DNA of 47,474 nt from Phycisphaeraceae bacterium. Lineage in GTDB: Bacteria > Planctomycetota > Phycisphaerae > Phycisphaerales > Phycisphaeraceae. Below, one piece after another: positions 28,445 through 43,948 of the stretch. The DNA lies in contig JAFIFY010000171.1 of the NCBI GenBank assembly GCA_020831765.1, forward strand, positions 1 to 47,474. The letters run 5' to 3'. Every line of letters begins with the position of its first letter. Positions within the stretch are counted from its first letter, which is position 1. The translations under genes and the position numbers were made by a program. The notes beneath the pieces are model-generated. The model was given only the letters and a program-made list of their open reading frames with translations, was not told the DNA's origin and ran no database searches.

Positions 28445-28846
28445 ATGAAGATTTATGTTGGCAACATCAGTTTCCAGACCGATGAAGAGGCGCTTCGCGG
28501 CCTGTTCACCAATTACGGCGGCGTTGATGAGGTGACGGTGATCACCGACCGCGAGTCGGGCCGTTCCCGGGGGTTCGCATTCGTCACGATGAGCGACGAC
28601 AGCGAAGCTCAGGCGGCGATCGAAGCGCTCAACGACAGCGACTTTGAAGGTCGCCCGCTCAAGGTCAATGAGGCCAAGCCACGCGAGGAGCGATCCGGCG
28701 GTGGCGGTTTCCGTGGTGGCGGCGGCGGCGGTGGATTCAGAGGGGGTCGTGAAGGCGGCGGTGGCCGGGGCGGCTATCGCGGCGGTGGCGGTGGTGGCGG
28801 TGGTGGTGGCGGCGGCGGCTACTCCAATTCGCGCGAGCGTTGGTGA
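28445..28846 (+). CDS. Glycine-rich RNA-binding protein (single RRM + RGG/Gly-rich tail)
   Basis: RRM with RNP2 (KIYVGN) and RNP1 (RGFAFVTM). The C-terminal [17 protein letters not shown]...[13 protein letters not shown] tail resembles cyanobacterial Rbp / cold-inducible GRPs. The true start is the ATG at 28445. Confidence 0.85.
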
Positions 28847-29108: not shown

Positions 29109-31985
29109 ATGGTCCATCCACGAAACAGAACGGAGTGGCGGCCTCGCTGGGTCAGGCCGGCCTTGGCCGCCGCGCTGCTGGCCGGGTGGCTGCTTCTGGC
29201 CCCATCGGCCCCACAGGCCCGGTCCGGCGAGCCGATCACGGTGGACATTACCGCCGTCGGCGTCTCCGCGGCACCCGGTCGCACCGAGCCCGAGGCCCCG
29301 ATCGCCTCGGGACTTCCACCGCGCCTCATTCGGCACTTCGATTTCGAGGAGCCGAACAACGCCGAAATGATGCCGCGCGACTGGTACGCCATCGGCCGGC
29401 CGGAGGATACCGCCGACCCGAGCTTCGCCCGCGTACCGGTCCATCGCCAATTCGTGACACGCACCGGCTATCCCGCCTTCAACACGGTGGGATTCAACAA
29501 GTCGCAGCTTGAACCGGGCGATCACAATCTCCATCTGCGAACCGAAGCCGGAAGCGTCGGCGCTTTTCTGGCCATGGGTTCGGTCATCGCCCTGCCCAAT
29601 ACCGACTACCTGATCACCGCCCGTGTCAAGACAAGCGGATTGAGACATGCCCGCGCGCGGCTCTCGGCCGGCCTCGTGGATCAGGAGGGCAACTGGCTGG
29701 AGGATGCGATCATCCACGGGCCCGGTGTTCGCGGCGATGGACGCGACTGGGAAGATGTCCAGCTTCGCATTCATGGTCGATCCGGCGAAGCGGCGTGGAT
29801 GATTCTCTGGGTCGAACTGCTCCAGCCCCGGCAGCGGCACGACGATCAGCGACGGAACGAACACCAGGTGTTGTTGCAGGACATCGGGGCCGAGGCTTGG
29901 TTTGATGACATCAGCGTCTGGCAGATTCCCCGGATCATTCTGCGCACCCAGAACCCGGTCAACATCATCCGAGCGCCCGACCGGCCGGTGATTCACTGCG
30001 ACATCCGCGATCATGCCGATCAGCGCGTCACCGCCCGCATCCGCATCTACGATGAGTACCTTCATCTGATCGATGAAGACCGCCGCACGGTGGGTCGCGA
30101 TGTATCGCGCATCTGGCGATGGAATCCGAATCTGCCCCGATATGGCTGGTATCTGGCCGATCTTGAGCTTCACGCCGAGGGCCGGCCGGAACATCAGATC
30201 GGCCGATCGCTGCTTGCCCTGCTCTGGCTGCCACAAACCGCCGAGCGACCCGATCTCCACACACCCGCCTTTACCCTTGATCTTTCCGACATCGCCGACG
30301 AACACATCGCCCTCATGCCCGCCCTGCTTGGCCAGACGGCGCTGCGGAATGCCGCGATGAGCATCTGGACCCGGCGCACCGAGCCGGCCGACATCGACAG
30401 GCGCCAGAGCGACCTGGGCGGCGCCCACAACGAGCTTGGGCTGCGCGTCGGGGACATGATCATGAGTTTCTGGCCGCTGCCTGAGTATTTCGAGCGCCGA
30501 ACCACGCCGATCGATTCTTCGCTGGATGCCCTGGCCGGCCATGCCGCCATCTCCGATCCAATGATCCGGCCCGTGCTCCGCTACTGGGGTCAGCGCATCC
30601 GACGCTGGCAGTTGGGCGATGTGCCGGGCAATGCCATTCCGTTCGAGCCCAATCTGCGGGAACGCCTGGAACGATCCCACCGCAATCTCCGCATGCTGGC
30701 GCCCGATGCGGGCATGCTGCTGCCCTGGGGCGTGCAACACCCAGCCCCCCGCCTGACCATCCCCAATCTGCGCCTGGCCCTGGAAGTGCCCGTGACGGTT
30801 CCGCCGGCGACCATCCCCGAACTGGTCGATCGGATTCGTCGCGACAGCGCCGACACCCGCCACGCGCCGAAGATCGAATCGCTGCACCTGTTTTCTCCCT
30901 CGGCGCGGGAGATCAGCCAGCATCGCCGCATCACCGACATGATTCTCCGAATCGTTCACGCCTCGAGCGCCGATGTGCCTGAGCTGGTGCTGCGACAGAT
31001 ATGGACCCCCGCATCGGACCGCGATGCGGGCATGATGCCCGATCCCCTGCTGGGCGTCTTCGCCCAGGCGGCCGGAATGCTGGCCGGACAACGCCTGGTC
31101 GGACACATGCCGGTCATGCCGGGCGTCACCTGTCTGATCATGAATGGCGCGCGCGGACCGATGCTCGTGGTCTGGAACGAGCGATCCGACGTGAAGAACC
31201 CCGTCCTCGACCTGGACTTGGGCGGCGATGCCAAGGCATGGGATGTCTGGGGCAATCCGGTGCCGCTGGGCCGCGAACACGGCCGCGATCAACTTGCCCT
31301 GGACGACCGTCCGGTCTTCGTCACCGGCATCGACCTGAACCTCGCCCTGCTTCGCCGCTCGTTCGTGATGGACAAGCCGAAGATCCGCTCCAACCAGTTG
31401 CCCCAGACCCGCTACCTGACGTTGGGCAATCCGTGGCCGCGCACCATCCATGGAACCGTCCGCATCATCGAGCCTGAAGGCTGGAATATCGTCCCGATGC
31501 GACGATCGGTCGCGATCCCGGCCGGACAGACCATCACTTTTCCTTTGGTGATGCAGATGTTCCCCCGCCTCGAGGCCGCCGGCCGTCACAGACTGACCGT
31601 GCGGCTTCAGACGCCCGGCGAGCCCCAGTTGTCGGTCGACCTGCACGTCGATTTTGAAGTGGGGTTGGATGAGGTGGAACTGGATTCGGCCCTGACCATC
31701 GAACCTTCACGCATCCGAGGGCGGCCGGCCGACGCCGTGGTGGTCCAGCGACTGACCAATCGCACCGACCGGCCGATCTCGATCCGTGCCTTTGCCAACC
31801 TGCGCGGCCATCCCACCCGCGAGACACCCGTCCCCCAACTCATGCCGGGCCAGTCCCTGGTGATCCGCCTTCGATTCCCCGGCGGCGGACCCGACGCGGT
31901 CGAACATTCCGTCCGTACCGGCATCGAAGTCACCCCGGGCAACGACATTCTGATTCACCGCCTTCACGTTGACCTTGACGAATGA
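29109..31985 (+). CDS. Large secreted hypothetical protein (958 aa), unknown function
   Basis: Signal peptide MVHPRNRTEWRPRWVRPALAAALLAGWLLLAPSAPQA. This frame has strongly C/G-biased third codon positions and normal amino-acid composition. The overlapping 969-aa minus-strand ORF is Arg/Gly/His-rich with no signal, so I judge it antisense. Confidence 0.6.
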   Translation: MVHPRNRTEWRPRWVRPALAAALLAGWLLLAPSAPQARSGEPITVDITAVGVSAAPGRTEPEAPIASGLPPRLIRHFDFEEPNNAEMMPRDWYAIGRPEDTADPSFARVPVHRQFVTRTGYPAFNTVGFNKSQLEPGDHNLHLRTEAGSVGAFLAMGSVIALPNTDYLITARVKTSGLRHARARLSAGLVDQEGNWLEDAIIHGPGVRGDGRDWEDVQLRIHGRSGEAAWMILWVELLQPRQRHDDQRRNEHQVLLQDIGAEAWFDDISVWQIPRIILRTQNPVNIIRAPDRPVIHCDIRDHADQRVTARIRIYDEYLHLIDEDRRTVGRDVSRIWRWNPNLPRYGWYLADLELHAEGRPEHQIGRSLLALLWLPQTAERPDLHTPAFTLDLSDIADEHIALMPALLGQTALRNAAMSIWTRRTEPADIDRRQSDLGGAHNELGLRVGDMIMSFWPLPEYFERRTTPIDSSLDALAGHAAISDPMIRPVLRYWGQRIRRWQLGDVPGNAIPFEPNLRERLERSHRNLRMLAPDAGMLLPWGVQHPAPRLTIPNLRLALEVPVTVPPATIPELVDRIRRDSADTRHAPKIESLHLFSPSAREISQHRRITDMILRIVHASSADVPELVLRQIWTPASDRDAGMMPDPLLGVFAQAAGMLAGQRLVGHMPVMPGVTCLIMNGARGPMLVVWNERSDVKNPVLDLDLGGDAKAWDVWGNPVPLGREHGRDQLALDDRPVFVTGIDLNLALLRRSFVMDKPKIRSNQLPQTRYLTLGNPWPRTIHGTVRIIEPEGWNIVPMRRSVAIPAGQTITFPLVMQMFPRLEAAGRHRLTVRLQTPGEPQLSVDLHVDFEVGLDEVELDSALTIEPSRIRGRPADAVVVQRLTNRTDRPISIRAFANLRGHPTRETPVPQLMPGQSLVIRLRFPGGGPDAVEHSVRTGIEVTPGNDILIHRLHVDLDE

Positions 31986-32043: not shown

Positions 32044-32709
32044 TCACGGACCTTCGGCCAGCGCTGCTTCAATGGCCGTGATGACCTCGGGGCTGGTCGG
32101 GCTCTGCCGGGGCCGGAAACGCTGCACGATTCGACCATCCCGACCGATGAGAAACTTCTCGAAATTCCAGGTGATTTCGCCCGCGTGTTCGGGATTGGTC
32201 TGTTCCGACGTCAAGTGGGCGTAAAGCGGCGCGATGTCCTCGCCCTTCACGGAAATCTTGCTGAACATATCGAACCCGACCCCATAGTTGACCTGACAGA
32301 ACTCGGCGATCTGTTCGTTCGTGCCCGGCTCCTGGTTGCCGAAATTGTTGGCGGGAAATCCAAGGATGGATAGCCCGCGGTCGCGATACCGCTCGTGAAG
32401 CTCCTGAAGCTGGGCATACTGCGGCGTCAGTCCACAGCGGCTGGCCGTGTTGACGATGAGGATGACATCGCCCTGATACCGCGATGCCAGATGCACGGGA
32501 TCACCATCGATCCGCTTCAAGGTGAAATCAAGGGCCGATGGATGCGTCGCGGGGTTGGGTTCGGTCTTCACGGCTTTCGACTCCCTGGCGGGCCTGTCCA
32601 TCTGACACGCGGCCAGCGACATCACCGGCAACAGCATCCCAAGGCACATAAGGCTGAACTTGCTCACGATGGTCTCTCCGAACTGAGGATCAGCGAACGT
32701 TTCCATCAT
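32044..32709 (-). CDS. Glutathione peroxidase family protein (thiol peroxidase), lipoprotein-anchored
   Basis: The GPx signature region VILIVNTASRCGLTPQYAQLQELHERYRDRGLSILGFPANNFGNQEPG has Cys in place of Sec, plus the WNFEKFLI motif. The N-terminal signal has an AAC lipobox. Confidence 0.85.
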   Translation of the reverse strand: MMETFADPQFGETIVSKFSLMCLGMLLPVMSLAACQMDRPARESKAVKTEPNPATHPSALDFTLKRIDGDPVHLASRYQGDVILIVNTASRCGLTPQYAQLQELHERYRDRGLSILGFPANNFGNQEPGTNEQIAEFCQVNYGVGFDMFSKISVKGEDIAPLYAHLTSEQTNPEHAGEITWNFEKFLIGRDGRIVQRFRPRQSPTSPEVITAIEAALAEGP

Positions 32710-32763: not shown

Positions 32764-34632
32764 TCAGGGCGAAAGCGTCCGAAGTTCCATGCGCCAGGTG
32801 TCCCGCGTCTGCTCATCGACATCGGGATCGGGCAGCAGCGATCGCCTCGTGCAGTTAAGCAGCGCTTGCAGTTCCTGATATCGCCTGGCCTGCCCAATGT
32901 CCGCGGGCAACTGGTCGCCGATCACCTCGTGGACATCGCCCGGCTTCAACTCCCGGTCGAGCAGTTCCCGCCGGGCCAGCAGTTGGCTGCGCAAAGCGCT
33001 GAACGCGGCGGCGGAGTAGCCTTCGGTCAGGGAAAGCAGTGCTTCCCACTCATCAGCCTCGGGCTGGCCCTCCAGACCTCGAAGCGCCCACCGCAGAAAC
33101 GCGGCATGATCCTTGCTCCGTGGCTCTGGATCGAGCACGGGGATGATCAGATCGCCGACGCGGCCCGGACGACGAAGGTCTGGCGAAAGCAACTCGATCC
33201 GGGCGGTCATCAGCAACCAGACCACTCGGCCGCGCAGCTTCGGATCGCTCATCATCTGCTGGAGTTTGCCGGTCAGGCGCCGTTCGGTGGGGTGGGCCTC
33301 GGCGCCGACGGACCCGAACTGCGTGTCAGCCTCATCCACAATGATGATGACCTTGCCCAGGCTCTCGAGCAGGCTGCGCAGCTTCTCGAACAGAACATCG
33401 GTCTGCCCGAAGTATTGACTGCGGATGTTCTTGAGAACCAGAACGGGCAGGCCCAGTGAACCGGCGACCGCTTCAAAGATGAACGTCTTGCCTGACCCGA
33501 TGGGACCGGCGATCGCCGCGCCCGGCAGTGCAGCGGGGCCGGTGGCGCGGATTCGTGGGATCATCTCATCGGCCAGGAACTGCTTGAGGCGGGAAAAGCC
33601 CACCACATCCTCCAGCGAATGCGCGGGCTTGGAAAACTCCACGACTCCTTCGCCCAGCGTGCCCTCGATGTACGATTCGACCCGCGAGATGATGTCGGAG
33701 ACCGACACGGGCTGGTTGACATAAGCCGAGCGCAGCAGCAATTGCCGCATGGCATGGAGCGAAAGCCCGGCGGTCAAGGCCGCGAACTCCGGCAGCGGCA
33801 TTTGCAGCGGCGCTTCGGGCGAATGCGTTCGATTGAACCATTGCGTGAAATGAACGCGCTCCTCCTGGTTCGGTGGATCGATGCCGATCATGACCAGTTG
33901 CGGCAAGCTGGTGACGCGCGTGCTGACCGCCGAAGCCGCCTCCGCGATCATCACGACGCTGTCCGGGCCATTGTTGAAAGCCGGATCGCTGAGCCAGTCC
34001 TGCATGATGCTGATGCGATGACGGTCGGCCGGCGTCATGCGTGACAGATCGGCATCGCCGCCCGAGCCCGGCAGCAGAAAATCCGCCGCCTCGACAAGAA
34101 TCAGCAATCGAAAACGGCTCTGCGAGCGTGAACAGATCGTAAGCTGTCGAAAGAACTCCAAGGCGACCGTCGGCTGCGCCGCGGCCTGTTCGATCATCTC
34201 GTTGAATCGGTTCTCGATTTCCTCCCGGCGATTATGCAGGGATGGATCGGCCAGGCCGCGCAGGATCAGTTCATCCCGGCTTCCGCCCAGCTTCCACTGG
34301 ACCCATGCGTCCCGCAGACGCCGGCGGTCGTCATCACTCGTGCAACGGATCGGCCCGTTCAACTCCGCGATCAGGACGATCAGGCCATCGACTCGGACGC
34401 GCTGACAGAGCCACGGCACCAACGGCAGGTATCGATCGGAAACGTTGCTGTGAAACAGCCCGTGTACATCACCGTGAAGGAGAATCGCCCTGCCCTGGCC
34501 GCTGTTGATGGTACGGGCCAGTTCGGTGTAGAAAGGATAGCTCGGCGAGTTGGAATCCTGCGAGGGAAGCGGAACGGAATCCATGGCCATGATCGGATAC
34601 CCGGGCATCGGCGTTCGACCGCGATTCACCAT
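32764..34632 (-). CDS. Classical-clade AAA ATPase (Vps4/katanin/FtsH-like ATPase domain) with a ~330-aa N-terminal domain of unknown function
   Basis: Walker A GPIGSGKT; Walker B IIIVDEAD. Second region of homology WLLMTARIELLSPDLRRPGRVGDLIIPV with arginine fingers. It aligns motif-for-motif with the Vps4 ATPase cassette. It lies 36 nt downstream of the PspA-like gene. Confidence 0.8.
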   Translation of the reverse strand: MVNRGRTPMPGYPIMAMDSVPLPSQDSNSPSYPFYTELARTINSGQGRAILLHGDVHGLFHSNVSDRYLPLVPWLCQRVRVDGLIVLIAELNGPIRCTSDDDRRRLRDAWVQWKLGGSRDELILRGLADPSLHNRREEIENRFNEMIEQAAAQPTVALEFFRQLTICSRSQSRFRLLILVEAADFLLPGSGGDADLSRMTPADRHRISIMQDWLSDPAFNNGPDSVVMIAEAASAVSTRVTSLPQLVMIGIDPPNQEERVHFTQWFNRTHSPEAPLQMPLPEFAALTAGLSLHAMRQLLLRSAYVNQPVSVSDIISRVESYIEGTLGEGVVEFSKPAHSLEDVVGFSRLKQFLADEMIPRIRATGPAALPGAAIAGPIGSGKTFIFEAVAGSLGLPVLVLKNIRSQYFGQTDVLFEKLRSLLESLGKVIIIVDEADTQFGSVGAEAHPTERRLTGKLQQMMSDPKLRGRVVWLLMTARIELLSPDLRRPGRVGDLIIPVLDPEPRSKDHAAFLRWALRGLEGQPEADEWEALLSLTEGYSAAAFSALRSQLLARRELLDRELKPGDVHEVIGDQLPADIGQARRYQELQALLNCTRRSLLPDPDVDEQTRDTWRMELRTLSP

Positions 34633-34668
34633 GCCCGGCCGGGACGCATCGGATGCCTGCCGAGGAAA

Positions 34669-35499
34669 TTACTCGGGAAGTCGCGGTTCGGAGGTCTTGT
34701 CCGTATCGGTGGGCCGCTCGGACTTGTCGGCCGATTCGGCCAGCCCGATGAGCTTGTCGAACTCGTCGCTGGTCTTGTGCTGCCTGGCATACTCCAGGAA
34801 CTGGGCCTCCTGAACCTTGGTGTCGGTACCGGCCAGTTCGCGGCTGATGCGCGCCTTGGCTTTCATTTCATCGCGTAGCTGGCGCATCTCGGCCAGGTCG
34901 CGCGAGGTTCGATCCTGGCTGATGCCCACCAGCATGTCGTTAAGCTCCTGCTCCTCCCGCGCGGTGATGATCTCGGCGACCGCCACGGCCTGTTCTTCCT
35001 TGACGCGGTCGATCTCGCGAAGCATCTGCTGGAGTTGAATCTTGTGCCCCTGGATGGTCTGATCCATGTCCGTCAGTTCCTTCTCCAGCTCGGCGATGCG
35101 CGGCGTCTTCTCCTCGATGCGACTCGTGAAGTCGTTGAAGGCCAGCATGCACTTCTGGTAATCCTCGCCGGCCTTGATCGCCGCAAGGTCCATCCCCTGG
35201 GCTCGCAGCTTCTCAACGGTGGTTCTCGCTTTGGCCGCCGCGCCTTCCTTGAGTTGTTCCATGCGGTTGATCTCGTCGGACAAGGCGCGGATGCGGTTCA
35301 TCTTCTCATCGTGCTGCACGATCAGCCTCGCGATCGCATCCTTGAACTGCTGGATCGATTTTTTCTTTTCCTCGATGATCTGGTCATACGTCGCATTGAC
35401 GACGTAAGGGCTTGTGCTGATCGCTCGCCGCGCCGCATCGATCCGACCGGTGACCAGGTAACCCAGGGCACGAAAGTAGCGTCCAACGGCCTTAAGCAT
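34669..35499 (-). CDS. PspA/Vipp1 (IM30) family coiled-coil protein, ESCRT-III superfamily
   Basis: The N-terminus LGYLVTGRIDAARRAISTSPYVVNATYDQIIEEKKKSIQQFKDAIARLI aligns with Vipp1 LGRVVRANLNDLVSKAEDPEKVLEQAVIDMQEDLVQLRQAVARTI. The rest is heptad-rich coiled coil with a C-terminal acidic/Ser-Thr tail. The likely start is MLKAVGRYF, the ATG at 35497-35499. Confidence 0.6.
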   Translation of the reverse strand: MLKAVGRYFRALGYLVTGRIDAARRAISTSPYVVNATYDQIIEEKKKSIQQFKDAIARLIVQHDEKMNRIRALSDEINRMEQLKEGAAAKARTTVEKLRAQGMDLAAIKAGEDYQKCMLAFNDFTSRIEEKTPRIAELEKELTDMDQTIQGHKIQLQQMLREIDRVKEEQAVAVAEIITAREEQELNDMLVGISQDRTSRDLAEMRQLRDEMKAKARISRELAGTDTKVQEAQFLEYARQHKTSDEFDKLIGLAESADKSERPTDTDKTSEPRLPE

Positions 35500-35738
35500 G
35501 ACAGGCTCCTTCGCTCGGGATGGCGATTCCGGGTTCACATGGCTCGCCGCGCGGCCCTTGGCGGCGCGCATCCAGACGATGCCCAGCGTCGCAAGCATCC
35601 GTGCCGACGAAGGATACCGCCAAAGCGCGGCCGGATCAATGCAAACAATCCGGCCGTACGGCCGCCACGGGATGCCGCATCAGCCCGTCACCGCGCCACC
35701 CGACGGCCGACCCGACGTTCGGACGGCGGCGGCGAAGC

Positions 35739-38700
35739 CTATTCCTCGCTTTCTTCCAGGCGGCGAATGATCCCCTGATACTTGTCCGCCAACGATTCGA
35801 GTGAATCAATCACCTGCTTGATTCGGCCCTCCTGGTCGGCGGTGATGCGGCTCAAGGGCTCCAGCCAGGCCTTCATCAGGTCGAACTGCTGCCGGATGAT
35901 GACCAGGAACGCTTCGGGAACCCGGTTGGTGATTCGAATCTGGTAAGGGCTGGGCTGACCGGTGACCTCTTCAGGCGTGGGTGGATCGGCGGCGGCCGGT
36001 GTGGCGGGCGGCGGCTCGGCGGGTTCGGGACGTTCGGCCCGTTCCTCGATCCAGCGCTGTGCGGCCGCGGCCAGGGCATCGAGCCGACTGGAAAGCTGAC
36101 TGGCCGCCTCGATCGCCTGATCATCGAACTTGGTCACCAAGGGCTTGCCGTTCTCGCCCTTGGCTCGCTCGATGGCGCTGCCGATCTGGCCCAGGCCCTC
36201 GTTGAACCGGCTCAATTGCGCCACCACCGCCGCGGTCTGATCGCCGCCCATCGCGGCCACCTCGTTCTGACGGACGAACGCCCGGCAAATCTCATCCCAC
36301 CGTTCCTTCTCCGTTTCACTCATCCAGCCCATCATCTCCTTGAACTTCAGCAGGTTGGCCTCCGCCCCGGTGGTCAGCATCTGGGCATCCTGCTCATAGG
36401 TCGAGAGCACAAGCGTCTTGAGCTCATCATCATTCATCACCGGCAGGATCCGCTCGGCGATGCGGTTCATGTTGCGGTAAGACCCTTGAAGCAGGAAGAC
36501 CGGCTCGCGACGATACCGATCATCCATGCCGGCCGAGCGGATGTACTGCTGATTGACGCGGAGAATGATGTCACGGACCTGAAGCAGCTTCTTCATCACA
36601 TTGACCATTTCCTCGATCTGGTCCGTGGTGAAGTTGGCCTCGAAATCTATGCCCTCGCGGGTGCCGGTTTCGGCGATGCGGATGATGTTGTAAACATCGC
36701 CCTGTGACCGCGTGGCCAGGTCGCGCAGCGTCGGGTTGCTGGTCAGGGCGTTTTCGATGTAACTGGTCCTGAACGCCTCGCCGTGATCCCCGATGATGTC
36801 GCCGAGGTTATAAGTGTCGGCACGGTTGGCCAGCATGTCGGGCACGCGGAACTTCTCACCGCTTTCGGTGTACGGATTACCCGCCATGACCACGGCGACC
36901 TTCCGGCCCCGCAGGTCGTAGGTTCTGGCCCGGCCCTTGTAGACGCCTTCGATCTTCCGCTGGGCATCGCACAGGGAGATGAACTTCTGCAGGAATTCCG
37001 GATGGGTGTGCTGAATGTCATCGACATAGATCATCACATTGTCGCCCATCTCGAAGGCGAGATTGAGCTTGATGATTTCCTCCCGGGCACCGGCGTTGGG
37101 CGCTTCCTCCGGATCAAGGCTCGTCACATCCCGGCCCAGCGCCGGGCCGTTGATCTTCATGAACACGATCCCCAGCCGACTGGCCAGGTATTCCATCAGG
37201 GTCGTCTTTCCATAGCCCGGCGGACTGATGACCATCAGCAGGCCGTTGCGGTCCGTTCGGGCATCGGCCCCGGCCGTGCCGATCTGCTTGGCCATGTTGG
37301 CCCCGATCAGCGGCAGGAAGACGCGGTCGATCAGGCGATTCCGCACGAACGTGGTCAACACGCGGGGCGTGAACTCATCGACCCGCATCTGGTCGCGTGT
37401 CCGCTCGACGATGCGGCGTTTGGCGGCGGTGAATCGCTCGAAACGCGGAACATCCTCCCGCGCGAACCGGCCGAGCCGATCGACGAACTCGAGGTAATCC
37501 AGCTCCATTCGCCCCTGCTTGATGCGGCCATGCCCGCCGCGCAGCCCTTCGACGGTCCGCCGCGCCTGAACGGGCAGCAATCGTCCATGGTCCCCCGTCC
37601 GGTCATACAACTTGAACGCCGCCTCATCCAGGCACAGACCGGCCCGGGCCTGATCCCGGTCCGAATCACGCACGAACGCCGCCAGCCAGTCACGGGCGAG
37701 CAGGAATCGCGCCATCGGCCCCTGGTCGGCCGCGTCCAGCGACTGATTGAAGCGAAGTTGCAGGTGATTGGCCTTGAGATGATCCTCAAAGGCGTTGATC
37801 AGTTCATCGGCTTCCGGGCTGGTGATGAATCCCGGTTCCTCACCGGTCAGCTCGAGGAAGAGATACTCAGCGGCCTGTTGGGCATGATCGGCGGAGAAGA
37901 CAGAATTCTGCTCGGCGAATTCGCCGATCAGCCGCGCGACCTTGTGGATGTATTGTTCCTGCCTGCGCGACTCGGGAAAAGCCCGGACCACCTCGGCATA
38001 CCCCTCGAGTTGCGAGGCGATAAAGCGTTTGGCCGGTGAGTCCTGGGCCGCGCGCCAGAACATTCCGGCCAGGGCCCGGGCCGCGCTGGAATACCGCAGA
38101 AGACCGATGGACTCGGATAGATCGACCAATTCCCGTACGATCAGGGCGGCATCGGCATCATGCACGCCTTTGGTATAGCCTTCGCCGTAGCGCGGCCCCA
38201 TGAAGCGTCGGACATGTTCCAGCAACCGATCGCCGCCGGGGTCCAGAAGCTCTCGACGTTCCATCTCCGGCATGGCAAGGAGGTCAGGCAGCATGACGAA
38301 CGCCAGGTACTCAGCTCGATAGACCGCCTCGTTCTCGCTGATCAGTTCCTGATTCCAGGCTTGACGTGCTTCATTGAGGTCAACATCATCCACCGGCTCG
38401 AAGAACCGGGTTCCGTTGATGTGAAGCTGCATCTTTCCATCGCGCTGCACCATGGTCAGTTCGATGGGCTGGGTGTTGACCGAAAAGACATGCCGCCCGA
38501 AACGGATGCTGTTGGGCCCTTCGGCCTGCAAGTCCAGCCGATCCTTCAGCCGCCGGACCGCATCCTCCCTCAGGCTGCGGAGGCGGCCCTGAATGTCATC
38601 GGCCCGCACCGTGTCTTCAAGGCCGATCAGTTCCTTGACGATGTCGCGAAGCTTGTCGATCATCAGGTCGCCGGCGAAATAACCATTGATCGCCGCGATC

Positions 38701-41072
38701 GAATCCATCGCCTCGACCCGTACCTTGATGCCGGAGAGAATGCGGTCGGCGGCCTGGCCCAGGGCGATCGCCCGCCGATTGCGCCGCTCGACCAGTTGCA
38801 GCTTGCGCTGCTCAAATGCGCTGACCACATCATCGCGGGTCTGGGCCAGGCGGACCACGAAGTCATCAAACTCCGCGAAGCGTCCCTCCAATTCCTCGAT
38901 TTGGACCAGCATCCGGGTCAGAAACGTATCGACCTTCAGCGGCTCATCGCACAGGTCCAGGTAGTTGGCCGTGCTCTGGGAGAGCAATCGAAGCTGGCTG
39001 TTGAACTCGGCCTCGCCTTCGACGCGCCCCAATTCCCCGGCGCGGTTGCGAAGCGCCTGACGCGAAGCGTTCAGATTGCCGAAGATCGCCGAGATGGCAT
39101 CAATGATCGTCGTCCGCTGCGTGCTGTCTTCGATCTTGAGGTTGCCCACGATCTCGATGAGCATTTCAAGCTCGGAGGCGGCGGCTTCAATCTCAGTGCC
39201 CAGCTCACGGGCATCCACGGCGGTCCGCACCGCTTCAATCCGGGCCGGAAATTCCCCGACACGGTCGCGATAGGGCTGAAGCGAATCCTCCTTGAGCAGA
39301 AAGGCCACGCAACGTTGACTGAGGGTCTCGGTCTGTTCGGTGACATCGGCTTCCATCGCCTCGACCCGCCGCGCATCGGCGTACCGGACTTCCTTGAGCC
39401 CGATGATCCGTCCCCGCGCTTCGCGAAGCTCGGCCAGCGCTGTGACGAACGCATCAATATGGTTGTACATCCGCGCGGCGTTCCGCGCGATCATCGCGCG
39501 CGTCCGGTCCTCTTCCTCGCCGATCGCCTGGTCGGCGGCGCGGCGGAGGCGGACGACCTTCTCATACTCGGCCACGGCCGACTGCCCCGTCTCACGGATG
39601 CGCCCGATCACCTGGTCGAGATTGAAGCATTCATCTTCCCGGAGCCAGTGGTAGCCCTCGAGCAGGTCCGAGGATGTCTTGACGATGTCCAGGTAGAGAT
39701 CGCTGTATAGCGATTCCCGCTCGATGAGCTGAAGCAGTTGAGCGCACTCGGCCATGCCCCGCACGATGTCACGATTGCCGATCTTGTAAAGTCGCGAGCT
39801 GGCGTCACCCTCGACCCGCTGATTGGGGCCGATGAACGGGGTCTGCCATATCTGGAGGGCATGGTGGCGCTGCGGCTCTTCGTGCGACTTGAAGTAAACC
39901 AGCTTGCCATCCTCGAACAGGCTGAATCCCGAGCAGATGATCGGCGTGTCGATGCGCTGTTCGATCAGGTTGTAGGGCAGAAGCGCGTAAGTGCCCTGGT
40001 CACGATGGTAGAAGACGTAGAGGAAATCCTCACCGTTGGGGCTGGAGATGCGGCGCTCGTGGATCATCCCATCGGGCACATTCGAGAACGTCTGATGCCG
40101 CCCCGAGGCCAGGTAGAAGCCCTTGCTGAAGATCAGGCCGTGATCATCCGGAAGCATCAGGCAGGAACCGGCCAGGGCATCTTGGCGGACCACCTCGTGA
40201 AGCTTTTCATTGAAAATGAAATAGCGGAACTGATTTTCCTTGAACGGCTTGATGCGAAGCAGGATCAGGTGGCCGTGAACGGCGTAGCTGATGTCGGCAT
40301 CGTCCGGGCCCTGGTCAGGATCATCGACCGGCTCGGCGTAGATGCCCCGGCCGTGCTCGGTGCTGTCCTCGATCTTGATCGTCAGCTCGCCGGAAATGGT
40401 CTCGACGAAGACCCGATCCTCGATGGAATAGTGGGGAAACTTGCCCGGGCGCAGCATGTCGCGCGTCACACGCTTCCAGTCCAGGTCGTGCGCCGCCGGA
40501 TAGCGGATTTCGTGATCCGACCGGTTGTCGACATAGACCAGTTGGTCACCTTCGATCGCCCATTTGAAGGCCTTGAAGTCTTCGCGATCGCGGCCCACCT
40601 GGAACTTCATGTACAGATAGGGAGCATTGAGGAAGAACTTGCTGAACGTCGCGTTGCGATAGAAGCGATAGAGATCTTTGAATTCCTTGACGAACCGGTC
40701 CGTGGCGATCGGCTTGATCGGTTCTTCGTGAAACTGCTCGCCATCAAAGCGGCTGCATGTGAACACATCGCCGACGTCGATCTCCTGCTTGAGACCGAAA
40801 CGAACGTTGTAGCCGAAGAGAAAGCGCTCACCGAACGCGGCCATATCGCGCGGCACGCAGTTGTGCGGCGTGGTGATGCGATCGGTGCCGATCAGCCGGG
40901 TCTCGACGCCACCGAAAACCTTCTTCCGCGCTTCATTGAGCTTGTCCAGGCGCGCGCGCAGATCGCGGCCGGCCTGAACCAGCCTCTCCCGGAGCACCTG
41001 GTAGGCGCCCTGATCCATTTCCCGCTCTTCGGGTTCCGCCGCGGCCTCGGGCGCTGGAGTCTGCTCGGCCAT
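35739..41072 (-). CDS. Giant (~1780 aa) protein with a single MoxR/dynein-type AAA+ (AAA_5-like) ATPase module, long coiled-coil/helical N-terminal region and Pro/Glu-rich C-terminal tail
   Basis: Walker A LMVISPPGYGKTTL; Walker B MIYVDDIQ. Sensor-1-like VVMAGNPYTE and Arg-finger-like VPDMLANRAD lie about 1250-1450 aa from the N-terminus. I recognise no other domain. The start is probably MAEQTPAPE (ATG at 41070-41072); the track ORF starts at 41105. Confidence 0.65.
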   Translation of the reverse strand: MAEQTPAPEAAAEPEEREMDQGAYQVLRERLVQAGRDLRARLDKLNEARKKVFGGVETRLIGTDRITTPHNCVPRDMAAFGERFLFGYNVRFGLKQEIDVGDVFTCSRFDGEQFHEEPIKPIATDRFVKEFKDLYRFYRNATFSKFFLNAPYLYMKFQVGRDREDFKAFKWAIEGDQLVYVDNRSDHEIRYPAAHDLDWKRVTRDMLRPGKFPHYSIEDRVFVETISGELTIKIEDSTEHGRGIYAEPVDDPDQGPDDADISYAVHGHLILLRIKPFKENQFRYFIFNEKLHEVVRQDALAGSCLMLPDDHGLIFSKGFYLASGRHQTFSNVPDGMIHERRISSPNGEDFLYVFYHRDQGTYALLPYNLIEQRIDTPIICSGFSLFEDGKLVYFKSHEEPQRHHALQIWQTPFIGPNQRVEGDASSRLYKIGNRDIVRGMAECAQLLQLIERESLYSDLYLDIVKTSSDLLEGYHWLREDECFNLDQVIGRIRETGQSAVAEYEKVVRLRRAADQAIGEEEDRTRAMIARNAARMYNHIDAFVTALAELREARGRIIGLKEVRYADARRVEAMEADVTEQTETLSQRCVAFLLKEDSLQPYRDRVGEFPARIEAVRTAVDARELGTEIEAAASELEMLIEIVGNLKIEDSTQRTTIIDAISAIFGNLNASRQALRNRAGELGRVEGEAEFNSQLRLLSQSTANYLDLCDEPLKVDTFLTRMLVQIEELEGRFAEFDDFVVRLAQTRDDVVSAFEQRKLQLVERRNRRAIALGQAADRILSGIKVRVEAMDSIAAINGYFAGDLMIDKLRDIVKELIGLEDTVRADDIQGRLRSLREDAVRRLKDRLDLQAEGPNSIRFGRHVFSVNTQPIELTMVQRDGKMQLHINGTRFFEPVDDVDLNEARQAWNQELISENEAVYRAEYLAFVMLPDLLAMPEMERRELLDPGGDRLLEHVRRFMGPRYGEGYTKGVHDADAALIVRELVDLSESIGLLRYSSAARALAGMFWRAAQDSPAKRFIASQLEGYAEVVRAFPESRRQEQYIHKVARLIGEFAEQNSVFSADHAQQAAEYLFLELTGEEPGFITSPEADELINAFEDHLKANHLQLRFNQSLDAADQGPMARFLLARDWLAAFVRDSDRDQARAGLCLDEAAFKLYDRTGDHGRLLPVQARRTVEGLRGGHGRIKQGRMELDYLEFVDRLGRFAREDVPRFERFTAAKRRIVERTRDQMRVDEFTPRVLTTFVRNRLIDRVFLPLIGANMAKQIGTAGADARTDRNGLLMVISPPGYGKTTLMEYLASRLGIVFMKINGPALGRDVTSLDPEEAPNAGAREEIIKLNLAFEMGDNVMIYVDDIQHTHPEFLQKFISLCDAQRKIEGVYKGRARTYDLRGRKVAVVMAGNPYTESGEKFRVPDMLANRADTYNLGDIIGDHGEAFRTSYIENALTSNPTLRDLATRSQGDVYNIIRIAETGTREGIDFEANFTTDQIEEMVNVMKKLLQVRDIILRVNQQYIRSAGMDDRYRREPVFLLQGSYRNMNRIAERILPVMNDDELKTLVLSTYEQDAQMLTTGAEANLLKFKEMMGWMSETEKERWDEICRAFVRQNEVAAMGGDQTAAVVAQLSRFNEGLGQIGSAIERAKGENGKPLVTKFDDQAIEAASQLSSRLDALAAAAQRWIEERAERPEPAEPPPATPAAADPPTPEEVTGQPSPYQIRITNRVPEAFLVIIRQQFDLMKAWLEPLSRITADQEGRIKQVIDSLESLADKYQGIIRRLEESEE

Positions 41073-41135
41073 TTCGCATCTCATCCGGGAAGTACAGAAA
41101 ACCAAACACCCATGCGGATGCTCACGCGCCGGGCG

Positions 41136-43220
41136 TTACGACTTGCCCTTGCCCTTGGGCGCATCGGCCGGGGGTGTCGATGGCTCGACCGGAACCGCCA
41201 CACTGGCCACGGGCTGGGTGCCCAGGCCGCTGCTTTCGGCGTAACCGGCCATCTTGCGGAGTTGATCCAGCACATGCCCATCCTTGGTCTGGCTGATCAT
41301 GCGCATCAACAACGCCGAGATCGACAGGTTCCTCACATCCTCGGTTGATATGCCGAACTGACTCATGAAATGCCGCAACCGCTGCCCGAAGTCACCGCCA
41401 TCGCCATTGAAGAAGGTGTCCCGGACAAGCTCGAGGTTTCGCGAATTGCTCATCATCCGGTCGACCTGCTTGCCGGATGTGATGGAATTGACGATGCGAT
41501 TGAAGAACTCGCCATCGCCGCCGACGATATCGATCTTGCTGTTTCGCAGGGCCTCGCCCAGGACGCGGGCCTGTTCGGCCGCCACATCGCGATGGACGTT
41601 GATGGCGGCGATATCGACTTCCCGATCCTTGGACAGGCGGAGCTTGAATTCCTCGTGTTCCCGGCCGACGCCGTCGAGCAGCTTCATGGCCTCGGCCTTG
41701 GCCGCGACCCCGTCGGCCTCGGCCGAATACTTCTCGCGCATCGACTTGGCTTCGGCTTCGCCCTTGGCCGCGATCACATCGGCCTGGGACATGCCGTAAT
41801 TCCGCTCGGCGCCGGCCTTGGCGTCGAGCACTTCGGCCTCGGCCAGGCCCTCGGCGGCCGATTCGGCGCGCGTCGCCTCGGCCAGCTTCATTTTGCCCTG
41901 GGCTTGCTTTTCGGCGGCCTGCCGGCTCGCCTCGGCCGCGATGAGCACCTCATCGGCCTTGAACTTGGCCGCTTCCTTGATCGCCTCGGCCCGCTTGACC
42001 TCCTTGACCTTGTCCTGTTCGGCATCGGCCGATGCCGCGGTGACCTTGACCGTCTTGGCCCGTTCGGCAGTCATCACCTCTTCGGTGTCCTTGATGCGCT
42101 GCTGCTCCTCGACGACCGCTCGCTCGACCACGACGCGCTCGCGAATGACATCCTGAATCTTCTTGCGCTCAACTTCCAGCGCCTTTTCCTTCTCGATCCG
42201 GGCCAGTTCCACCACACGCTCACGCTCGGTGGCCTCCAACTGGCTGTCGCGCTCGACGCGCTGCAGCTCCACCCCATCGGTCCGCTCCTTGGAACGCTGG
42301 GCCACCAGGATCTGCCGCTCCTTGTTCTGTTCGGAGATGCCCAGTTCCTCTTCGGTGCGAATGCGGGCGGTCTGGGCCTTGAGCCGCTCCTCTTCGCGGA
42401 CCTTGTCGGCTTCGGCCTGCTCGCGGGCCTGGATCGATTCGATCTCCCGCTTCTGCTTGGCTTCGGCATCGGACTGCTGGCGCTCGAGTTCGAGGATCGT
42501 CTCGCGTGCCTCGACGTCCTGCTTCTTGATGATCTTTTCCTTCTCGCGGTTGATGTCATTCGCCCGGACCGCTTCCCTGGCCGTCAGCTCGCTGATCTTC
42601 TTGATGCCCTCGGCGTCGAGAATGTTGTTCGGGTCCAGCTTATCGACCGAGGTCTGCTCGAGATAGTCGATGGCCGCGTCATCCAGCACATAGCCGTTCA
42701 GGTCTGTGCCGATGTGACTGACGATCTCATCCTTGAAGCGATCGCGTTCGGTGTACAGCTCGGTGAAATCGAACTTCTTGCCCACCGTCTTGAGAGCCTC
42801 GGAGAACTTGGCATCAAAGAGCTCGACCAGTTGCTCCTTGTCGCTTGCGCGGCGAACACCGATGGAGTCGGCCACCTGGAGCAGGTCCCGCTCGGCGTTG
42901 TTCACCCGCACGAAGAACGCCACTTTGATGTCGGCCCGGACGTTATCCTTGCAGATCAGGCCTTCCGAGCCGTGTCGATAGATTTCGATCCGCCGGACCG
43001 AAACGTCCATGACATCGGCGCGATGCAGGATGGGGAAGACCAGCATGCCGTTGAACGACACTTTGGCGCCGCCGTAGCCGCGCCGAATCAGGCCCGTGCC
43101 CGGTTCCACCTTTCGATAGCACTTGACCACCGTCAGCAGCGCTCCGAGGACGATGATCGCCAGGAAAATGACCGCCAGTACGATCAGCGTTTCCGTCACG
43201 GCAAGTAGGGTCGGCATCAT
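41136..43220 (-). CDS. Flotillin family protein (SPFH/band-7 domain, long EA-rich coiled-coil flotillin domain), YqiK/FloT-like
   Basis: N-terminal TM helix; SPFH core (GLICKDNVRADIKVAFFVRV...); about 250 aa of Glu/Ala/Arg/Lys-rich coiled coil (AEAKQKREIESIQAREQAEADKVREEERLKAQ...). It sits immediately downstream of the NfeD/YqiJ-like gene, as in yqiJK and nfeD-floT operons. Confidence 0.85.
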   Translation of the reverse strand: MMPTLLAVTETLIVLAVIFLAIIVLGALLTVVKCYRKVEPGTGLIRRGYGGAKVSFNGMLVFPILHRADVMDVSVRRIEIYRHGSEGLICKDNVRADIKVAFFVRVNNAERDLLQVADSIGVRRASDKEQLVELFDAKFSEALKTVGKKFDFTELYTERDRFKDEIVSHIGTDLNGYVLDDAAIDYLEQTSVDKLDPNNILDAEGIKKISELTAREAVRANDINREKEKIIKKQDVEARETILELERQQSDAEAKQKREIESIQAREQAEADKVREEERLKAQTARIRTEEELGISEQNKERQILVAQRSKERTDGVELQRVERDSQLEATERERVVELARIEKEKALEVERKKIQDVIRERVVVERAVVEEQQRIKDTEEVMTAERAKTVKVTAASADAEQDKVKEVKRAEAIKEAAKFKADEVLIAAEASRQAAEKQAQGKMKLAEATRAESAAEGLAEAEVLDAKAGAERNYGMSQADVIAAKGEAEAKSMREKYSAEADGVAAKAEAMKLLDGVGREHEEFKLRLSKDREVDIAAINVHRDVAAEQARVLGEALRNSKIDIVGGDGEFFNRIVNSITSGKQVDRMMSNSRNLELVRDTFFNGDGGDFGQRLRHFMSQFGISTEDVRNLSISALLMRMISQTKDGHVLDQLRKMAGYAESSGLGTQPVASVAVPVEPSTPPADAPKGKGKS

Positions 43221-43237: not shown

Positions 43238-43948
43238 TTAGAATCGACGAACAAGAAATACATGGGTCCGGGGCTCCTGCTTGACCAGGACGACCTCATC
43301 GCCCCGCTTGAGCGCTTCGCCCGGCTCGGTCAGACGCGCATTGAATCTCAGCGGAGCCCCGGAGGTTTCCACTTCCACCTGCCCGAACCGCTCGTCGAGC
43401 GTTCCGGAGACCACCCGGCCGCGACGGCCCACCAGAACCAGGTTCCGCTCGGCCATCTCCTCTTCCCGCAGTTTGCGGAAAACCTTCACGAGCGGCTGGG
43501 TCATCACCTTGGTGATCAGGGCGGCGCCGATGCCGAAGGGAACCAGCATCAGCGCCTGGAACAGCAGGCTCCATTCGCCCACCCAGGTATGGCTGGCCAC
43601 GCCCACCACCCAGAGCACCAGGACGAAGATCGAGAGCAGGAACATCAGGGGCACTTCGCCGACATTGAAAAACCGAAGGGCGTTGAGCATGATCGCCCCG
43701 CCGGAAAGCCCCGAGTCTCCCGCCGCGCCCCCGTGGTGGCCATCGAGAATGCCATCCCCGCCGATGTGCCCCACATCCCCTCCATCGAAATCCAGGTCCG
43801 CATCCACGTGGCCGTCCAGGTCCACATCCAGCGAATCCATCGTCAGCGCCCCGAAGATCACCAGCAACCAATAGAAAAGCAGCAACCCCAGCAGGGTCGT
43901 CAGCACCAGATTGACAGGCGAAAGAATGGCCTCGATCAATTCTGACAC
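43238..43948 (-). CDS. NfeD/YqiJ-like membrane protein (flotillin partner) with Asp/His/Gly-rich loop and C-terminal OB-fold
   Basis: TM helix, then acidic loop DSLDVDLDGHVDADLDFDGGDVGHIGGDGILDGHHGG, then TM helices. The C-terminal ERFGQVEVETSGAPLRFNARLTEPGEALKRGDEVVLV aligns with E. coli YqiJ [27 protein letters not shown]. Gene order YqiJ-like then flotillin. Confidence 0.7.
   Translation of the reverse strand: MSELIEAILSPVNLVLTTLLGLLLFYWLLVIFGALTMDSLDVDLDGHVDADLDFDGGDVGHIGGDGILDGHHGGAAGDSGLSGGAIMLNALRFFNVGEVPLMFLLSIFVLVLWVVGVASHTWVGEWSLLFQALMLVPFGIGAALITKVMTQPLVKVFRKLREEEMAERNLVLVGRRGRVVSGTLDERFGQVEVETSGAPLRFNARLTEPGEALKRGDEVVLVKQEPRTHVFLVRRF

Follow-up and report, generated by a model that had tools for sequence, protein, structure and literature searches.

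On the minus strand of a Phycisphaeraceae contig, a gene for a coiled-coil protein is followed by a gene for a classical AAA ATPase. We propose, with a probability of about one half, that this locus is a membrane-remodelling or repair module in which a dedicated hexameric AAA unfoldase recycles a divergent PspA/IM30 polymer former. The proposal draws on the homology of the coiled-coil protein to Vipp1/PspA and its amphipathic N-terminal helix, on the recurrence of the pair across genomes, on the domain structure of the ATPase and on a conserved C-terminal tail of its partner. The window analysed here is the whole 47,474-nt stretch of that contig.

The gene pair and its recurrence across genomes

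The two genes lie as follows.

34669..35499, minus strand: PspA-like gene, putative divergent PspA/IM30 (ESCRT-III superfamily) protein, 276 aa plus stop
32764..34632, minus strand: AAA ATPase gene, putative tandem classical AAA, longest ORF 622 aa

The PspA-like ORF runs from an ATG at 35499, with an AAGGAG Shine-Dalgarno sequence 7 nt 5' of it, to a stop at 34669-34671. An alternative start at 35598 is possible and would give a 309-aa ORF, and 276 aa is preferred because the homologues and the database record agree on it. Since the public record starts the AAA gene at 34590 (608 aa) rather than at 34632, the intergenic gap is either 78 or 36 nt. An earlier note on this DNA was right about the place of both ORFs; its 277 aa for the PspA-like protein counted the stop codon, and its 36-nt gap holds only for the longest AAA ORF. 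Rfam and tRNA scans of the window gave no matches, and a promoter scan found no minus-strand sigma70-like site near the pair.

The pairing described in that note is conserved in Planctomycetota and beyond. In a survey of 80 species loci anchored on the AAA gene, a PspA-like gene was sought within 10 kb and was present in 58, on the same strand every time and directly upstream of the AAA gene in 32 of these 58. Of the loci with flanks of 8 kb or more on each side, only six had no PspA-like gene, and in the reverse survey, anchored on the PspA-like gene, the AAA gene lay downstream in 3/3 loci. The pairing is far beyond chance. The system was found in several hundred species, mainly planctomycetes; many relatives carry the pair as part of an operon that also encodes a substrate-binding protein, VWA and OmpA proteins and an ABC transporter, and in many loci the minimal conserved unit is the PspA-like gene, with or without a gene for a 2-TM coiled-coil protein, plus the AAA gene.

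Another reading is that the pair is an anti-phage defence system or another mobile accessory module. There are weak PADLOC matches to the LmuB coiled coil (E=1.6e-4) and the IetA AAA protein (6.9e-5), but these amount to generic coiled-coil or P-loop similarity, and vertical conservation across Planctomycetota, a stable chromosomal context and the uniform composition of the window all speak against this reading. We regard a defence role as very improbable.

Relationship of the coiled-coil protein to Vipp1 and PspA

The comparisons indicate that the coiled-coil protein is related to Vipp1/PspA, remotely but along its full length. The Pfam profile PF04012 matches the window protein at 16.4 bits (E=0.007), below the gathering score of 33.9 bits. 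It is nevertheless the commonest Pfam match among the homologues (18/47 at E<=0.01, best 4.4e-6) and the top family for consensus sequences of the PspA-like family (23.1-23.8 bits, E=4-6e-5); ten divergent members of the family have no PF04012 match. The earlier note had assigned the protein to the PspA/Vipp1 family and had offered failure of PF04012 detection as grounds for dropping the assignment. By the gathering score that detection does fail, but homology is recovered by more sensitive comparisons. Aligned with Nostoc Vipp1 by HHalign, the broad family profile reaches a probability of 95-96.5% (P=3e-8 to 1e-9), collinear over Vipp1 residues 1-215. Scores of family profiles were 58.6-67.4, against 15-17 for the reversed-sequence control, and the narrower profile A2 scored 41.9, whereas composition and block shuffles of Vipp1 gave 14-17 and at most 22.7. 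In a Foldseek search of the PDB (350,542 chains), Vipp1 entries were the top matches, and NCBI and JGI label some homologues PspA/IM30.

Other searches set the distance of this relationship. Among PDB sequences, the best match of the window protein is Vipp1 at a non-significant E=0.29, while the family profile gave prefoldin at 0.026 and Vipp1 at about 0.09, neither significant, and HHalign against E. coli PspA was not significant. A profile search of 1.84 billion representatives returned 580 clusters that form a discrete family without merging into canonical PspA, and therefore provide no transitive link. The 2-TM coiled-coil protein (c2, ~249 aa) encoded beside the PspA-like gene in other planctomycetes has no significant similarity to the PspA-like family.

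It could be argued that the protein is a generic long helical hairpin with no homology to ESCRT-III or PspA, in which case it and the ATPase would make up a coiled-coil/AAA system unrelated to these. The collinear alignment to Vipp1, far above the reversed and shuffled controls, the consistent ranking of PF04012 as best Pfam family, the Foldseek result and the database names make this improbable.

Domain architecture of the ATPase

The ATPase is best read as a tandem classical AAA protein with a degenerate first copy and an active second one.

33631..34548, minus strand: D1, degenerate AAA domain, residues ~29-334 of the 622-aa ORF, predicted catalytically inactive
32767..33630, minus strand: D2, predicted active AAA cassette (PF00004 and motifs) with a conserved C-terminal extension YQxLQALxNCTRRSLLPDP
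33484-33507, minus strand: Walker A of D2, GPIGSGKT, residue 376
Minus strand, within D2: Walker B, IIIVDE (IIIVDEAD), residue 429
33145-33204, minus strand: second region of homology of D2, ARIELLSPDLRRPGRVGDLI, residues 477-496, with RRPGR arginine fingers

PF00004 matches the protein at E=8.8e-17 (Pfam). D2 has the Walker A and B motifs, pore loop 1 and arginine fingers of the classical clade. Its pore loop 1 reads SQYFGQTD, in which the aromatic-hydrophobic-glycine triplet [YW][FY]G is invariant, and the D2 motifs are invariant across 48 homologues. By its motifs, D2 has every catalytic and pore-loop element of a substrate-threading motor. The classical-clade second region of homology that the earlier note had seen in the cassette is thus present at residues 477-496, and the note was also correct that the protein is not the sigma54 activator PspF: it has neither a sigma54-activator domain (Pfam, NCBIfam) nor a GAFTGA motif.

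Two further claims did not survive. The N-terminal ~330 aa had been suggested to be a MIT-like adaptor, but the region is a degenerate AAA copy lacking Walker A and arginine fingers. D1 aligns with D2 by HHalign (E=2.8e-6, probability 88%), the alignment of Pex1 to the tandem AAA spans 474 residues, and in the AAA model ~18 disordered residues precede a D1 with an alpha/beta fold and a helical lid. The P-loop position of D1 reads G-x-V-H-D-L-F instead of GxxGxGK[ST], yet many D1 residues are invariant despite the lost motifs. The second claim, that the cassette aligns motif by motif with Vps4, describes a likeness generic to the classical clade. VAT/p97/CDC48 match better (E=6e-23, with Katanin at 2.6e-10), and Vps4 is absent among the best 60 PDB sequence matches. 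The NCBIfam CDC48 model scores 53.7 bits (cut-off 802) and the CdvC equivalog 23.9 bits (cut-off 650).

A true Vps4 orthologue that uses a MIT domain to bind a MIM motif of its partner was considered as a candidate and ruled out by the domain analysis. In place of a three-helix MIT domain, the ATPase has a degenerate AAA domain at its N-terminus, the all-helical lid of the model has no beta-domain insertion, and the CdvC model ranks below CDC48-type models. Together with the partner's lack of a MIM consensus, described below, this leaves orthology with Vps4 scarcely credible.

A conserved tail on the PspA-like protein

Both ends of the PspA-like protein carry conserved features.

35452..35499, minus strand: N-terminal amphipathic helix, MLKAVGRYFRALGYLV, residues 1-16, candidate membrane-binding helix alpha0
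34738..34764, minus strand: C-terminal motif EFDKLIGLA, residues 246-254, conserved among homologues
34672..34683, minus strand: extreme C-terminus RLPE, conserved as [KRQ][LIV]PE, sometimes with one further residue

Residues 1-16 have the highest hydrophobic moment of the protein (0.66; mean 0.32, sd 0.13) and are helical in the AlphaFold model at low confidence; the N-terminus is conserved and aligns with that of Vipp1. At the other end, E246, F247, L250, I251, G252, L253 and A254 are invariant across 47 homologues, as is L274, and P275 and E276 are kept in at least 90% of them. A variable acidic linker of ~20 aa separates the EFDKLIGLA motif from the RLPE terminus, which is disordered in the model (pLDDT ~40). 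All 58 PspA-like partners in the species loci share EF[DE]xLIG followed by a linker that varies and a C-terminal [KRQ][LIV]PE; these loci span phyla and include one from Hydrogenedentota and one from 'Deltaproteobacteria'. This tail is a candidate tag for recognition by the ATPase. The MIM-like motif that the earlier note had suggested looking for there was not found: a regular-expression search for MIM1/MIM2 consensus matched none of the 47 aligned homologues and not the PspA-like protein itself.

Genes upstream of the pair

The pair lies downstream of a row of three genes that the earlier note had missed.

35500..35738, minus strand: intergenic spacer, 239 nt, 5' of the PspA-like gene; contains a weak hairpin resembling a terminator (35664-35651)
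35739..41105, minus strand: giant DUF3686/DUF7902/AAA+ protein, 1788 aa, immediately upstream of the spacer and pair
41136..43220, minus strand: flotillin-like protein, 694 aa, with a membrane anchor, an SPFH-like domain and a long coiled coil
43238..43948, minus strand: YqiJ/NfeD-like membrane protein, 236 aa (Pfam YqiJ_N E=6.7e-4, below threshold)

The 1788-aa protein matches DUF3686 (E=1.6e-177) and DUF7902 (1e-25) in Pfam and has an AAA-type P-loop region at ~1286-1414. The flotillin-like protein has an N-terminal hydrophobic segment and an E/K/A-rich coiled coil; its residues 57-310 align weakly but collinearly with FloT (NCBIfam E=3.4e-4), and it has no match in Pfam or among PDB sequences. 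Hydrophobic segments and a beta-rich C-terminal tail characterize the YqiJ/NfeD-like protein. Linkage of the DUF3686 gene to the pair is confined to the nearest Phycisphaerae loci, within the set L001-L013; the flotillin-like gene is co-conserved with the DUF3686 gene, and the YqiJ/NfeD-like gene is co-conserved in L001, L003, L004, L010 and L013. The spacer divides the pair from the flotillin/DUF3686 genes, whose linkage to it is clade-restricted, and may keep two transcription units apart or dampen read-through.

A possible mechanism and its alternatives

How might the two proteins work together? In the membrane-remodelling module that we favour, the PspA-like protein would assemble on the cytoplasmic face of the inner membrane, and its exposed C-terminal tail would be captured by the D1 ring or the D2 pore. 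ATP-driven D2 would then pull PspA-like subunits from the polymer, leading to its disassembly, remodelling or reset. The ATPase would in this way do for the PspA-like polymer what Vps4 does for ESCRT-III, by means of a CDC48/VAT-type two-ring enzyme that dispenses with MIT-MIM recognition. In this Phycisphaeraceae clade, the YqiJ/NfeD-like protein, the flotillin-like scaffold and the DUF3686 AAA+ protein probably set the membrane site at which the polymer acts. The 239-nt spacer with its hairpin, and the restriction of that linkage to one clade, weigh against the model.

An alternative is that the PspA-like protein is not the substrate and instead serves as a membrane-stress-sensitive partner that binds the ATPase and restrains or targets it, after the PspA-PspF paradigm. 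The clients of the ATPase would then come from the membrane or envelope, namely flotillin assemblies in this locus and, elsewhere among planctomycetes, ABC transporter, OmpA or VWA components. In E. coli, PspA is known to regulate the AAA+ protein PspF negatively, and a conserved yet inactive D1 would fit a ring for adaptor docking. Moreover, many relatives have the pair within transporter and envelope operons, so the ATPase could have other clients. The ATPase is, however, a classical threading motor and not an enhancer-binding protein, the minimal unit in many loci is only the PspA-like gene (with or without that for the 2-TM coiled-coil protein) and the AAA gene, and the disordered, conserved extreme C-terminus resembles a substrate-engagement tag more than a regulator surface. 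We judge this regulatory arrangement unlikely, at perhaps half the weight of the recycling module.

A bolder version of the recycling module, which we put forward tentatively, is that the tandem AAA protein does in bacteria the work of Vps4, as a motor dedicated to the ATP-driven disassembly of an ESCRT-III-type polymer. Its ancestor may have been a CDC48/VAT-like enzyme with two rings; its origin would be independent of archaeal Vps4, or else it would be a pre-Vps4 relic, and the new C-terminal tag EFDxLIGLA...[KR][LI]PE-COOH would replace the MIT-MIM pairing.

Possible significance for bacterial membrane remodelling

Planctomycetes have unusual membrane invaginations, and many of their lineages are not known to have FtsZ. 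Because the pair is present in several hundred mainly planctomycete species, membrane dynamics in this group could rest on it. According to a 2025 review (PMC7619361), a Vps4-like ATPase regulating ESCRT-III dynamics "appears absent in bacteria", and reviews have argued that turnover of PspA polymers must therefore use other mechanisms (PMC7619361). Among candidates for an ATP-driven recycling machine acting on a bacterial ESCRT-III relative, this pair is the most concrete. If it does act in this way, the combination of a polymer and a hexameric extractor would also occur outside archaea and eukaryotes, made from a CDC48-type enzyme, and would bear on the origin of Vps4 from Cdc48-like ancestors (PMC10936438).

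The earlier note had held that PspA-with-AAA pairings were noted computationally and otherwise essentially uncharacterised. This agrees with Ravi et al. (mSystems 2024, PMC11237479), who describe them, and with our literature searches, which found no experimental work on the dyad or on DUF3686. Since the association has already been described computationally, the locus is a good experimental entry point and not a discovery. The specifics added here are that the N-terminal region is a dead AAA D1 rather than a MIT domain, that D2 has the features of a threading motor, and that the partner bears a conserved C-terminal candidate tag, of whose motifs we found no mention in the available part of Ravi et al. 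(PMC11237479).

Comparison with known systems

The closest published system is the 'inactive classical AAA + classical AAA' dyad beside PspA, reported by Ravi et al. (PMC11237479, Text S2.2, Table S3) with examples such as Clostridium AEY64320/AEY64321 and the Handelsmanbacteria OGG56892 operon, and for which ATP-dependent membrane remodelling was independently proposed there. Like that dyad, the window pair joins a dead N-terminal AAA and an active classical AAA to a PspA-type gene, a likeness of architecture and operon composition. The extended operon of its relatives is also of the same type (substrate-binding protein, OmpA, ABC permease and ATPase, TM coiled-coil protein). The window itself lacks transporter genes; the genes ahead of its pair are those for the YqiJ-like, flotillin-like and DUF3686 proteins. 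The window pair is probably one more member of this known kind.

The same source describes an operon of YqiJ/YuaF, Band-7/flotillin and a beta-propeller + coiled-coil + AAA protein that is linked to CesT/Tir-PspA (e.g., Dokdonia ANH61663). The three upstream genes of the window are of these types in identical order, whereas no CesT/Tir gene was found beside the window PspA-like gene, whose partner is the tandem AAA. The two published contexts were seen joined in one gene row only in a Phycisphaerae clade. An SPFH scaffold together with PspA is known elsewhere as well: in B. subtilis, PspA is reportedly brought to the membrane by YdjI, a member of the band-7/flotillin family, and in Acidobacteriota PspA is associated with band-7/FloT and NfeD proteins (PMC10936438, PMC9239133).

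The E. coli psp system likewise couples a PspA-family protein functionally to an AAA+ protein, but the GAFTGA and HTH elements of PspF, a sigma54 enhancer-binding protein, are absent from the window ATPase. In the haloarchaeal 'Halo_adaptin' system (Makarova et al., mBio 2024, PMC10936438), a Vps4-like ATPase without MIT adjoins a gene weakly similar to PspA. That system is archaeal, however; its ATPase has a VAT-type N domain in place of a degenerate AAA D1, and it includes winged-helix and adaptin-like partners. Compared with the type II classical AAA unfoldases CDC48/p97/VAT and Pex1/Pex6, the window ATPase lacks the double-psi-barrel N domain, and it falls far below the NCBIfam cut-off for CDC48. 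From ESCRT-III and Vps4 of eukaryotes and CdvB/CdvC of archaea, the window system differs in having no MIT, MIM or beta-domain, in having two rings with a dead D1, and in being nearer to CDC48/VAT in sequence. It shares with them the adjoining genes for an ESCRT-III-superfamily polymer and a classical-clade AAA motor and, if our prediction is right, the logic of ATP-driven subunit extraction by way of a C-terminal tail.

Organization of the gene row

ORF analysis of the window revealed five closely packed ORFs that run in the same direction on the minus strand.

43948..43238 (-): YqiJ/NfeD-like membrane protein, 236 aa; 17 nt to the flotillin-like gene
43220..41136 (-): flotillin-like protein, 694 aa; 30 nt to the DUF3686 gene
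41105..35739 (-): DUF3686 AAA+ protein, 1788 aa, also with DUF7902; 239 nt to the PspA-like gene
35651-35664 (-): hairpin CGGCCGTACGGCCG within the 239-nt spacer (35500-35738), GC-rich and with a T-poor tail downstream
35499..34669 (-): PspA-like protein, 276 aa; 36 nt to the AAA ORF (78 nt to the annotated AAA start)
34632..32764 (-): AAA ATPase, 622 aa; 54 nt, then a glutathione peroxidase gene

The pair formed by the last two genes exists as the earlier note described it, and the coordinates, intergenic gap and second-region-of-homology string quoted there are all correct; the 277 aa assigned to the PspA-like protein are 276 aa plus the stop codon. An AAGGAG Shine-Dalgarno sequence precedes the start of the 276-aa ORF, and in the database records the two products are a "hypothetical protein" of 276 aa and an "ATP-binding protein" of 608 aa. 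By acting as a weak terminator or an attenuator, the hairpin in the spacer may divide the row into two transcription units. The flotillin-like protein had no Pfam match and only a weak match to FloT.

The glutathione peroxidase (32044-32709, minus strand) has at its N-terminus a hydrophobic signal segment, perhaps of lipoprotein type; since its gene is missing from all of the best 80 related loci, it probably does not belong to the pair's system. At the other end of the row, the minus strand at 44147-46962 encodes a HAMP/HisKA/HATPase sensor kinase, which a gap of 198 nt separates from the YqiJ-like gene downstream, and beyond the kinase an N-terminal-methylation/DUF1559 protein, a family that is a planctomycete hallmark. 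The plus strand carries yidC (60KD_IMP) adjoining mnmE (TrmE) at 24261-28076, a gene pair often found close to the chromosomal origin; GC skew over the window showed no clear switch. Following these on the plus strand are a small protein (28427-28846), which by eye resembles an RRM at its N-terminus and ends in a long tail rich in Gly and Arg, and a 958-aa ORF without a Pfam match (29109-31985). The opposite strand has an ORF of 969 aa that overlaps the latter and is probably a high-GC shadow.

Homology and C-terminus of the PspA-like protein

One possibility is that the coiled-coil protein is not homologous to PspA/ESCRT-III at all. It scored 16.4 bits (E=0.007) with PF04012, below the gathering score of 33.9; at Pfam's threshold this is formally the failure that the earlier note had named as refuting its reading. 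PF04012 had no match in ten divergent family members, the family profile returned nothing significant from PDB sequences, and an exhaustive profile search recovered a discrete family of 580 clusters without running into canonical PspA. More sensitive comparisons nevertheless support homology. Of all Pfam families, PF04012 matched the most homologues (18 of 47, with a best E of 4.4e-6, against 5 of 47 for the next family), and it ranked first for the family consensus sequences, spanning profile positions 3-210 of 220 at E=4-6e-5. A Foldseek search of 350,542 chains placed Vipp1 structures first (E=5.5e-4, about 250 columns, 20% identity). HHalign matched Nostoc Vipp1 to the broad family profile with a probability of 95.1% (P=3e-8) and to the divergent half of the family with a probability of 96.5% (P=1e-9), both alignments being collinear over Vipp1 residues 1-215. 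Controls stayed at background, with scores of 15-17 for the reversed sequence against the broad profiles and 14-17 for composition or 14-residue-block shuffles against the narrower 47-sequence profile. The hydrophobic moment peaks in the first 16 residues, as expected for a candidate membrane-binding helix alpha0. Because the Pfam, Foldseek, HHalign and hydrophobic-moment tests agree, the protein very probably belongs, as a divergent member, to the PspA/IM30 (ESCRT-III) superfamily, and an unrelated coiled coil is unlikely.

A single C-terminal layout is common to all 47 aligned homologues and to all 58 partners in species genomes: EF[DE]xLIG[LFI], a variable acidic linker of ~20 residues that is predicted to be disordered in the model, and a terminal [KRQ][LIV]PE, sometimes with one more residue. 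A MIM-like motif had been envisaged in this tail, but a consensus search matched neither MIM1 nor MIM2. The disordered, invariant extreme C-terminus fits the expectation for a tag engaged by the AAA pore or a docking ring, and may serve as one.

Architecture of the ATPase

Pfam recognized a single AAA domain in the 622-aa ORF (residues 374-493, E=8.8e-17) and had no match in the first ~330 residues, where the earlier note had placed a possible MIT-like domain. The N-terminal region is better described as a degenerate AAA fold (D1) that aligns with the C-terminal cassette (D2). A confident AlphaFold model based on 48 homologues (pLDDT 88, pTM 0.82) folds residues ~19-312 into an alpha/beta domain that carries a helical lid. 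HHalign of the D1 and D2 profiles gave E=2.8e-6 and a probability of 88% over 167 columns, with the D2 Walker B "IIIVDEAD" matched by "LLILVEAAD" in D1 and both lids aligned as well. In the homologue alignment, D1 has G-x-V-H-D-L-F at the P-loop position and has lost its arginine fingers, and dozens of its residues are invariant despite the lost motifs; the D2 GPIGxGKT, DEAD, [YW][FY]G pore loop and RRPGR are kept without exception. The duplication and the state of the motifs in the two domains make the ATPase a classical AAA enzyme of the two-ring type, in which D1 is dead yet still constrained and D2 is predicted to be competent for threading. Neither a MIT domain nor a beta-domain nor sigma54 elements turned up in the model and motif search; the lack of sigma54 elements agrees with the earlier view that the ATPase is not of the PspF type.

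Alignment with Vps4 had also been claimed for this protein, and one alternative is that it is a true Vps4 orthologue. The closest solved structures by sequence are VAT, p97/CDC48, NVL and AFG2 (E=6e-23 to 1e-15), katanin follows in the same PDB search at E=2.6e-10, and the best 60 matches do not include Vps4; in NCBIfam, CDC48 scores highest at 53.7 bits, followed by PAN at 29 bits and CdvC at 23.9 bits. Orthology to Vps4 is thus extremely improbable. What stands of the bacterial ESCRT-III/Vps4-like reading is a probable PspA/IM30 relative paired with a classical AAA protein, whereas a specific Vps4 likeness and the MIT domain do not hold.

Conservation is also strong in a C-terminal extension of the ATPase, its last ~45 residues (32764-32905), which reads YQxLQALxNCTRRSLLPDP...R..W and includes an invariant Cys as well as an RR pair; no counterpart of it was identified in Vps4 or CDC48.

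Linkage across genomes

A scan of one genome per species identified at least 554 loci with relatives of the ATPase, the best 80 of which were analysed. Nearly all of these 80 are from Planctomycetota, the others being one Hydrogenedentota MAG and single MAGs labelled Deltaproteobacteria and Nealsonbacteria. A PspA-like gene lies within 10 kb of the AAA gene in 58 of the 80, always on the same strand: directly upstream (<400 nt) in 32, 0.5-3.4 kb upstream in 12 and downstream in 14. It is absent from 6 loci with flanks of at least 8 kb on both sides and from 16 whose flanks are too short for judgement. Reverse retrieval via the PspA-like protein found the ATPase downstream in 3/3 loci.

The trio of YqiJ-like, flotillin-like and DUF3686 genes (35739-43948 in the window, minus strand) precedes the pair in no loci other than the nearest Phycisphaerae ones, among L001-L013, and conservation of the full five-gene row is confined to these closest loci. 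Some Phycisphaerae relatives (L002, L008 and L011) have an extra ORF of ~313-335 aa, protein cluster c25, between the DUF3686 and PspA-like genes, where the window has only the 239-nt spacer. In the metagenomic locus L082 (10841-13315) the ATPase is encoded as two ORFs, D1 of 319 aa and D2 of 311 aa (PF00004). The split is either natural, falling at the domain boundary, or the result of a frameshift in the assembly of this low-coverage contig. In the same locus a ParE-like toxin gene lies between the PspA-like gene and the ATPase.

Many Planctomycetia loci outside the window's clade (e.g., L014, L021, L056 and L071) have a longer operon encoding a substrate-binding protein, VWA, OmpA, a 2-TM coiled-coil protein, the PspA-like protein, a second binding protein, an ABC permease, an ABC ATPase and the AAA protein. 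The 2-TM coiled-coil protein (~249 aa, two N-terminal TM segments and a long coiled coil), usually encoded directly upstream of the PspA-like gene in Planctomycetia, occurs in 26 loci (e.g., L014:5377-6123, L021:5368-6114 and L081:9206-9952) and has no copy in the window. It could correspond to the 'TM+Snf7' protein that Ravi et al. described, although its HHalign comparison with the PspA-like family was not significant.

Discussion

By domain architecture and gene neighbourhood, the pair belongs to a dyad type that is already published, though uncharacterised, since Ravi et al. (mSystems 2024, preprint 2020; PMC11237479) described such dyads. Among the contexts presented in that paper are an extended operon, which also encodes PBPB+OmpA and TM+Snf7 proteins together with an ABC ATPase and permease, and a separate operon of YqiJ/YuaF, Band-7/flotillin and a beta-propeller + coiled-coil + AAA protein; the authors proposed ATP-dependent membrane remodelling. 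PspA has also been linked to SPFH and NfeD proteins (Popp et al. 2022, PMC9239133; Makarova et al. 2024, PMC10936438). Our literature search found no experimental work on the dyad. The present analysis adds the explicit demonstration that D1 is dead, rejects recognition through a MIT domain and MIM motif, and contributes the conserved candidate tag in the tail, a measured frequency of linkage and a Phycisphaerae clade in which both published PspA contexts are combined in one gene row.

The association is already in the literature, and what the pair does is a proposal built on sequence and models. We propose, with a probability of about one half, that the PspA-like protein would polymerise on the inner membrane and that the two-ring AAA would then extract subunits through the C-terminal tag. 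The main alternative, which we regard as possible but distinctly less probable, casts the PspA-like protein as a factor that would regulate or target the ATPase, whose clients would be other envelope proteins; PspA-PspF offers a precedent, and the frequent embedding of the pair in transporter operons fits such a role. That the pair is a defence system is very unlikely.

A Vps4-like ATPase "appears absent in bacteria" according to a 2025 review (PMC7619361), and the locus provides a well-defined way to test for an ATP-driven ESCRT-III recycling enzyme in bacteria. The function proposed for the ATPase is analogous to that of Vps4 on ESCRT-III, but it would be carried out on a CDC48/Pex1-like chassis instead.
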